This document shows positions 43,240-43,430 of a stretch of 64,000 nt of DNA, one piece after another. The translations under genes were made by a program, and so were the position numbers. Origin of the DNA: Eledone cirrhosa. Lineage: Eukaryota. The notes beneath the pieces were generated by a model, which did not search any database, was not told where the DNA came from, and worked only from the letters and a program-made list of their open reading frames with translations. How positions within the stretch are numbered: the first letter of the stretch is position 1; every line of letters starts with the position of its first letter. Location: the NCBI GenBank assembly GCA_964016885.1, contig OZ024743.1, forward strand, positions 347,696,001-347,760,000. Direction: 5' to 3'.

Positions 43240-43430
43240 ACGAAGGAAATGTGGTAAGGAACCAGGTGGACCATAACGTACCAAAGTACTCAATACTTAG
43301 GGTAGTAGAGTGGGTAATAGGAACGAGTAGGACCCCGACGGCTGAGCTGATGCCGTTTCGACGGCTAATTCTGGCAGAATTAGCCGTCGAAACGGCTTGA
43401 GCTCAGCCGTCGGGGTCCTACTCGTTCCTA
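43240..43430 (-). mobile_element. Hairpin-plus-tail short element, copy 1, in (TA)n
   Basis: 113-nt near-perfect palindrome 43318-43430 plus a 78-nt tail 43240-43317; homologous to 60312 and 63048. Confidence 0.9.

Follow-up and report, generated by a model that had tools for sequence, protein, structure and literature searches.

Three Palindromic Elements in (TA)n Runs of the Window

We analyzed a 64-kb stretch of the Eledone cirrhosa genome (contig OZ024743.1, positions 347,696,001 to 347,760,000; hereafter the window), focusing on a short non-coding palindromic element, here called a mini. A first-pass annotation had described three copies of this element, lying in (TA)n and having common outer ends. 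All three copies were confirmed, at 43240-43430 on the minus strand (copy 1) and at 60312-60480 and 63048-63203 on the plus strand (copies 2 and 3), each flanked by (TA)n. Positions within the element are counted from +1, the putative RNA start, which corresponds to position 3829 of L061, a copy bearing the open reading frame (ORF) of a Penelope-like element (PLE), referred to below as the parent. In this numbering, the GUC triplet of a hammerhead ribozyme ends at +41, the tail-less end of the palindrome lies at +58, the tail ends at +138 and the ATG of the ORF is at +232. The features are as follows.

43159-43239, no strand: (TA)n target run to the left of copy 1; a shorter run lies to the right of 43430
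43240-43317, minus: PLE tail of copy 1, 78 nt, +61 to +138; its +138 end abuts (TA)n
43318-43373, minus: tailed (direct) arm of copy 1, +5 to +60
43374-43374, no strand: head-to-head junction of copy 1, 1 nt, the palindrome center
43375-43430, plus: tail-less (inverted) arm of copy 1, +5 to +60, ending against (TA)n
60312-60361, minus: tail-less inverted arm of copy 2, reaching +11, with minority-subfamily markers
60362-60480, plus: tailed arm and tail of copy 2, from about +17 to +138 after a 3-nt gap, majority subfamily
63048-63092, minus: tail-less inverted arm of copy 3, reaching about +16
63093-63203, plus: tailed arm and tail of copy 3, from about +26 to +138

The long palindrome described in the annotation, with 56-bp arms, a 1-nt loop, two mismatches and a 78-nt tail, was confirmed for copy 1, which showed a folding z score of -16.2 as compared with 200 shuffled sequences. 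Copy 2, however, is a poor palindrome, the arms of which differ at six sites, three of these being subfamily markers. The tailed arm of copy 1 comprises the end of loop II, the 3' strand of stem II, GAAA, stem III, GUC and the 3' strand of stem I, and the would-be cleavage position lies between 43337 and 43336. The half-hammerhead string quoted in the annotation is found exactly only in the tail-less arm of copy 1; the tailed arm has two mismatches in stem/loop III. Similarly, the placement of the junction inside ribozyme stem II holds for copy 1, where it lies next to the 3' strand of stem II, towards the loop. It does not hold for copies 2 and 3, whose tailed arms are shorter, with a clean match only from about +26, within stem III. 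The tail of copy 1 matches the stretch of L061 between the ribozyme and the ORF. Its +138 end may represent the second of two start sites of the reverse transcriptase (RT), and the end of the tail-less arm may represent the first (+58). A search of the 64-kb window against Rfam at the gathering threshold gave no match.

Size of the Family and an ORF-Bearing Parent Element

Searches of the 3-Gb genome with exact patterns detected 21,124 tail ends with TATA directly after them and 6,719 tail-less ends with TATA directly before them, the reversed controls giving 0. The family thus has at least 21,124 tail ends, corresponding to about one per 140 kb. Exact copies continuing from the tail towards the ORF numbered only 61 genome-wide. 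Among the best 30 loci, 27 consisted of the palindrome and tail, and three extended upstream, carrying the missing ribozyme strand. Enrichment in (TA)n was evident at loci picked without any TA requirement, where 29 of 30 and 15 of 15 tail ends abutted (TA)n, as compared with 8.2% of the window. Members of the family often sit in a (TA)n run beside another member, forming clusters (L035, L044, L079, L082 and L287).

L061 contains the whole element: in addition to the terminal repeat, the tail and the ORF, it has the ribozyme region and a 3' untranslated region (UTR) of about 1.1 kb. It is laid out head to head like the minis, over 6.6 kb and with a tail at one end only, the element unit being about 3.6 kb. 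The ORF is split by one frameshift in L061 into frames 4060-5592 and 5531-6220. RT motifs (RLRWR and SDKTGN) are present, and frame 5531-6220 encodes a CxCX5C linker, a single Cys between the GIY- and YIG-like motifs (no CCHH), and CNLC followed by CKH. The ORF has 2,140 homologues, the best with 50% identity, and the aligned homologues hold the C-terminal nuclease region. Neither frame matched Pfam, and a PDB sequence search returned only weak T-cell-receptor matches (E 0.025 or worse), which we took as chance. The matches in the protein atlas were eukaryotic clusters without a name; in some of these, 16-20% of the members carry RVT_1. Judged by its ORF motifs and (TA)n targeting, the parent is a PLE of the Hydra clade, almost all families of which are described as inserting in (TA)n (PMC8557442).

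The ORF-bearing parent bears out the PLE origin and the 3' half of a type I hammerhead proposed in the annotation. It also bears on the possibility that the minis belong to a DNA transposon, either a miniature inverted-repeat transposable element or a Helentron, with internal inverted repeats. The short length, high copy number, palindromic structure and AT-rich targets are in keeping with such an element. However, the sequence is the terminal repeat of an element with an RT and GIY-YIG ORF, its inverted repeats are not both terminal, and the centers are variable. We therefore regard a DNA transposon as extremely improbable.

Two Fixed Outer Ends and Variable Junctions

The arms of the family have two fixed outer ends, 80 nt apart, at +58 for tail-less and at +138 for tailed arms. 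When 90 tail-less arms were examined, 75 had a tailed partner and one had a tail-less partner. Conversely, among 70 tailed arms, 37 had a tail-less partner, one had a tailed partner, 16 were scored solo, five were long and 11 were unresolved, a few true palindromes having fallen into the last classes in this scoring. Long arms, which were 30 in number, ended at +58 in 15 cases and at +138 in 15 cases, indicating that both positions are free 3' ends. In the element, each site is followed by TAT, which matches the target over 3 nt. The two ends agree with the in vitro behavior of the Poseidon PLE PAc described in PMC11167929, in which both target strands are cut and extended and reverse transcription initiates at a pair of internal positions, one on either side of the tail.

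To characterize the junctions, we used 109 palindromes from samples chosen without regard to likeness to copy 1. The loci L001-L030, which had been selected by this likeness, were excluded from the junction and allele counts and from the script-based boundary test, and were included in the arm comparison (140 palindromes). The 109 palindromes fell into 98 distinct classes of left end, right end and length. The minis are therefore not copies of one master hairpin, and the earlier view of a family copied whole from such a master is not supported. For the same reason, they do not behave as a master-copy SINE or MITE family, in which the internal structure would be common to all copies.

A Shared Inner Boundary with an Untemplated C

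In contrast to the centers, the inner ends of the arms converged. The inner ends at 70 tail-anchored loci were located at -4 to +8 in 33 cases, at -71 to -5 in none, beyond -72 in five and at +12 to +113 in 32, three of the latter being indel artifacts. Those of 90 tail-less arms lay at -8 to +12 in 65 cases, at -39 to -9 in three, beyond -40 in eight and at +13 to +30 in 14. Thus, arms of both types share an inner boundary at -4 to +1, within ribozyme loop II. The minis lack the 5' core strand of the hammerhead and retain only its 3' (substrate) half, because this boundary sits downstream of that strand.

In 3,496 arms, the base immediately before +1 is a purine, which was G in 87 of the first 100 inspected by eye; G on the sense strand corresponds to an untemplated C in the cDNA. 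By comparison, long arms genome-wide have G before +1 only once and A twice. Both arms reach +1 in 2,406 palindromes. In the first 50 of these centers, four had an extra base on both arms, and seven of the eight one-base centers were C/G. At the extra-base loci that were fetched, the long parent of the same subfamily has T at -1 in 14 of 16 cases, indicating that the extra base is not templated; a 17th locus (L235) can be explained by the template. The steps at +1 and +138 recur in contigs of two public runs (both from one study and possibly from the source organism itself), which argues against an assembly artifact, and these runs were used for this purpose only. At L259 and L261, RNA containing ORF sequence also appears to end at the inner boundary.

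Reverse transcriptases are known to add C opposite a cap. The stop of both arms at one boundary, together with the untemplated C, is as expected of run-off at a capped RNA 5' end, which is the likely explanation. Both stop sites presumably sit in initiator-like words, and +14 to +25 of the element resembles, at 9 of 12 positions, the Drosophila MTE promoter motif, which would lie at +18 to +29 from the upstream stop site. Separately, long A or T runs were observed at the junctions of L094, L103, L128, L132, L154 and L161, and an extra T recurs within the T run at -3 to -1. These features suggest slippage at the RNA 5' end, by either the RT or the RNA polymerase.

On this evidence, we consider that the minis are probably the shortest insertions of a (TA)n-targeting Hydra-clade PLE, being head-to-head joins that result from double priming at two internal RNA sites and run-off at the RNA 5' end. 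In this scheme, both strands of the cut (TA)n target would prime cDNA synthesis at the internal sites +58 and +138 of the element RNA, and both cDNAs would run to the transcript start, copying the first 58 and 138 letters, respectively. The two cDNAs would then be joined head to head, the center being made by host end-joining with microhomology and small insertions. The transcript may start inside the hammerhead, so that its 5' end would hold only the substrate half and could not cleave itself, and a complete variant ribozyme would lie at its 3' end.

Source of the Two Arms

The two arms of a palindrome agree at subfamily sites, namely in 122 of 125 cases at +48, 125 of 130 at +53 and 119 of 120 at +38. 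In L061, the divergence of the long arms is 0.019 from the partner, as compared with 0.063-0.068 from the family mean, and the differences are mostly at private sites. These data indicate that the arms usually share a source, and both cDNAs may usually derive from one RNA molecule or one source locus. The use of two random RNAs as templates was dropped in view of the agreement at subfamily sites.

A shared source is also expected if one cDNA folds back and serves as its own template up to +58, with later deletions scrambling the center. In a related scheme, head-to-head PLE palindromes have been interpreted in print as products of self-priming on an antisense template, a point that the authors left open (PMC3846280). 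In line with fold-back, the arms share some rare alleles in addition to the subfamily sites, and paired long arms diverge less from one another than from the family average. However, of 378 rows with a variant at +29, in loop III, the first 100 included 88 in which only one arm had the variant, the remaining 12 rows representing six loci with the variant in both arms, and the lone variant occurs in either arm type. Both arms can carry untemplated C at +1, separated by 0-6 nt. Long arms that extend further than their partner can end freely at +58, as in L061, where the tail-less arm is longer than the tailed arm. In L115, L140 and L169, the tail-less arm is joined straight to the tail with no partner arm. 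The one-armed +29 variant, the extra C on both arms and the overreach of tail-less arms favor two syntheses from RNA over fold-back. Simple fold-back, as the annotation had envisaged, fits poorly with one boundary for both arms, each with its untemplated C, and with tail-less arms that often outreach their supposed template. We judge fold-back or self-priming to be quite improbable.

Apparent Jumps, RNA Template and Possible Strand Transfer

Thirty loci continue past the tail, and eight of them (seven insertions) hold a short arm reaching about +1 (range -4 to +42). The stretch that precedes the short arm ends at +213, +239, +245, +254, +873, +956, +973 or +975 and runs back towards the start. 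Two of these joints recur in an independent public run. Read as cDNA, the loci hint that the RT, having arrived at the RNA 5' end, jumped onward.

These loci are relevant to another version of double priming, in which the template is a short RNA transcribed from the minis themselves by an internal promoter from +1. The minis would then be a self-renewing non-autonomous family, the hairpin of which is rebuilt at each insertion. The excess of 21,124 exact tail ends over 61 exact copies continuing towards the ORF is as such a family would produce; the tailed arm keeps +1 to +138, and PLE promoters are described as internal (PMC2377424). Moreover, an allele at +109 occurs in six of 108 minis and is absent from 67 long arms. 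Nevertheless, 14 of the 15 frequent mini alleles are also present in long arms, the jump loci show short cDNAs apparently made beside ORF-containing RNA, and the minimal RNA of the anole PLE is reported to extend beyond the RT start sites (PMC11167929). Templates derived from the minis thus appear unlikely, and we prefer the parental RNA as the source of both cDNAs.

Among 17 copies extending far into the ORF, 15 pass +1 seamlessly into an upstream repeat of variable length, two start downstream and none starts at +1. The seamless passage fits a homology-guided jump to the RNA 3' end, and read-through or circular templates fit as well. A scar of strand transfer was sought as G at -1 in long arms; it occurred only once genome-wide, so that the test was negative. 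In view of this result and of the missing cleavage-site peak (see below), it is only with considerable doubt that we raise the possibility that the PLE replicates as a target-primed element resembling those with a long terminal repeat (LTR), by a jump of strong-stop cDNAs to the RNA 3' end. If this is true, the RNA would begin with an uncleavable half ribozyme, and the whole ribozyme would trim the 3' end, leaving a 41-nt terminal repeat. Reverse transcription would start only near the 5' end, and the jump would be needed both for copying the ORF and for rebuilding partial-tandem pseudo-LTRs (pLTRs). About 20,000 minis would then be failed jumps, the hammerhead would gain a job, and pLTRs, tails and inverted copies would share one mechanism.

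At L242:1517-2172, a site that L244/L245 also represent, a 257-nt unit extending from the putative start to 22 nt into the ORF is repeated 2.5-fold in tandem. The same junction occurs twice in this array, which may be rolling-circle-like or reflect repeated jumping on one RNA.

Several points weigh against double priming with run-off on parental RNA. All unbiased samples came from contig C1. In the script-based test, C was present at five of 11 boundary ends as compared with 12 of 95 ends elsewhere (p = 0.015), the parser having mis-anchored some loci, and a partner arm ending in G can explain part of the G excess (L116 and L189). Concordant arms also fit fold-back or gene conversion, and the discordance at +29 could reflect a hot spot of change after insertion. 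Short tailed arms could be later asymmetric deletions, the asymmetry of tail-anchored loci being only about 6:2 by eye; a ratio of 44:10 from the script parse came from a biased, partly mis-parsed set and was not used. Window copy 2 has arms of two subfamilies and is one of few chimeras, so that a shared RNA is not universal. Finally, run-off at +1 is not how the ORF-bearing copies end.

The Hammerhead and Its Retained Half

The annotation had proposed a search for a parent that carries the missing strand with a CUGANGA core and that might lie downstream of a PLE ORF. A parent with the missing strand does exist downstream of such an ORF, but its core is U3-A8 in most cases and otherwise mainly C3-A8. 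By eye, the first 100 of 2,711 core matches comprised 64 U3-A8, 34 C3-A8, two U3-G8 and no canonical cores, with G, U or A at position 7, and a dedicated search for CUGANGA detected six exact copies genome-wide. The core had at one stage been read as CUGA-GA with position 7 deleted, a reading dropped once the U3-A8 majority was seen. The three stems, G10.1-C11.1, GAAA and an NUH triplet are all present. In four of four natural copies, the constrained hammerhead fold lay 0.8, 0.8, 1.5 and 3.5 kcal/mol above the minimum, with the lowest values in U3-A8 copies. From sequence and folding, the parent ribozyme is thus predicted to be a type I hammerhead with a variant core. A search of four parent loci against Rfam gave no hammerhead family among 135 matches to E 10, only repeat-driven noise of the microRNA type. 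U3-A8 hammerheads can be active, although our literature search returned no support for this. Covariation of U3-A8 is known from Schistosoma PLE hammerheads, which also include paired ribozymes on opposite strands (PMC4209133). In long arms, the A/T hairpin at -14 to -5, the apex of loop II, was also seen to be hypervariable; in L058, L048, L111 and L265, even the two arms of a single insertion differ there.

In the reading of the annotation, the finished hairpin would be mobilized whole from masters, and either its half ribozyme could be cleaved in trans or the element could be a source of double-stranded RNA (dsRNA). The hairpin is indeed very stable, and a hammerhead with the parent enzyme strand formed in silico in one of two pairs tried. 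In contrast, folding indicated that the half ribozyme would be buried in duplex within a hairpin transcript, and no footprint of adenosine-to-inosine editing was seen, A>G changes on the sense strand (17/3229) not exceeding T>C changes (27/5131). Junction starts near the GUC triplet (first 100 of 319, by eye) were about 15 at +42, eight at +41/42, seven at +43, 20 at +39, 11 at +28 and nine at +32. All of these show microhomology to the partner, which explains each of the peaks at +28, +32, +39 and +42, and a clean cleavage-site peak was not found in this set. A single locus, L248, has its start precisely at +42. Cleavage, trans-cleavage and a role of the minis as dsRNA are therefore unsupported, and given also the 98 distinct junctions among 109 copies, mobilization of a finished hairpin is very unlikely.

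Other Elements in the Window

A different, tandemly repeated element with internal inverted segments adjoins copy 1 (about 42830-43160) and also L030 (L030:2180-3135). At about 33650-38100, the window contains another PLE family with head-to-head inverted arms on the kilobase scale (34210-35557 and 36067-37573), which is unrelated to the family of the minis and shares 27-52% amino-acid identity with the parent frames. On the minus strand, fragments of another PLE-type RT with the motifs of another clade lie at 25385-26492, and a decayed RTE-like element lies at 13774-15440. A non-LTR ORF2 at 30248-33753, also on the minus strand, is nearly complete, and its endonuclease and RT are spread over two frames that overlap.

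Comparison with Known Systems

Hydra-clade PLEs, (TA)n targeting, inverted pLTRs with a tail, two RT start sites and U3-A8 cores are already known. We did not find one-of-each pairing of start sites, run-off of both arms with an untemplated C, or a transcription start inside the ribozyme in the literature covered, which was mostly open-access and included older Penelope work only thinly. The origin of PLE inverted repeats, one-sided tails and pLTRs, and the role of the hammerhead, are stated to be open in PMC3846280 and PMC8557442. Tens of thousands of minimal insertion products may record the reaction, with its two fixed starts, common stop with an untemplated C and occasional jumps, and they make the sense-RNA double-priming and strand-transfer models directly testable. 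A transcription start inside the ribozyme, if true, would disarm the 5' copy and provide an elegant means of regulation. The family also contributes heavily to the short perfect palindromes of this genome.

The parent resembles the Hydra-clade PLEs described in PMC8557442, including Hydra-1_Obim, in its RWR/RWK and DKT motifs, CxCX5C linker, C-terminal GIY-YIG without CCHH, and CxxC and CxH flanks, as well as in (TA)n targeting. In both, the hammerhead lies close to the 3' end, and its stem II has a G-C pair and a bulge at the base. The Hydra hammerheads listed there have CUGANGA and a very short stem III, whereas in the parent the core is U3-A8 or C3-A8, stem III extends over 6 bp and loop II is long, and its ribozyme differs in sequence from the Hydra-1_Obim row. 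Thus, a variant core replaces the canonical hammerhead that is given as a Hydra-clade feature of the pLTR. The 3' UTR of about 1.1 kb and unit of about 3.6 kb also contrast with the "<3 kb" given for Hydra PLEs. As in the inverted pLTRs with an optional tail described in PMC3846280 and PMC8557442, we see head-to-head copies, a junction palindrome and a tail at one end. Unlike those pLTRs as described, the tail here is 78 nt rather than 30-40, and the commonest insertion is the bare junction of 150-200 nt. The data on the minis favor two sense-RNA cDNAs over the antisense self-priming of PMC3846280.

The closest biochemical parallel is Poseidon PAc as reported in PMC11167929, in which both strands are cut and extended, two internal RT sites bound the tail near the ORF start, and hammerhead cleavage is dispensable in vitro. 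Unlike PAc, both sites here lie in the 5' UTR, each followed by TAT; the main text of that paper contains no mention of one-of-each pairing, start-site run-off or head-to-head joining. Schistosoma Cercyon PLEs (PMC4209133) likewise show U3-A8 covariation and opposite-strand ribozymes close together. These are described as whole minimal ribozymes 100-700 bp apart, whereas the minis hold the 3' half only and the length of stem III in the parent suffices for a monomer. Non-LTR retrozymes (bioRxiv 10.64898/2026.07.22.740005) are similarly short, non-coding and PLE-derived with type I hammerhead parts, but are described as head-to-tail tandems with complete ribozymes, in contrast to the head-to-head half ribozymes of the minis. 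Among our loci, only L242/L244 is tandem-like in the manner of retrozymes, with a 257-nt unit and no enzyme strand. In L1 twin priming, an inversion arises because the RNA is also primed by the second target strand, and the two segments do not overlap, whereas both cDNAs proposed here would copy the same stretch from +1 to +58. Retroviral strong-stop DNA is a short, tRNA-primed cDNA reaching the RNA 5' end; in the minis, by contrast, priming would occur on the target DNA and not on a tRNA.
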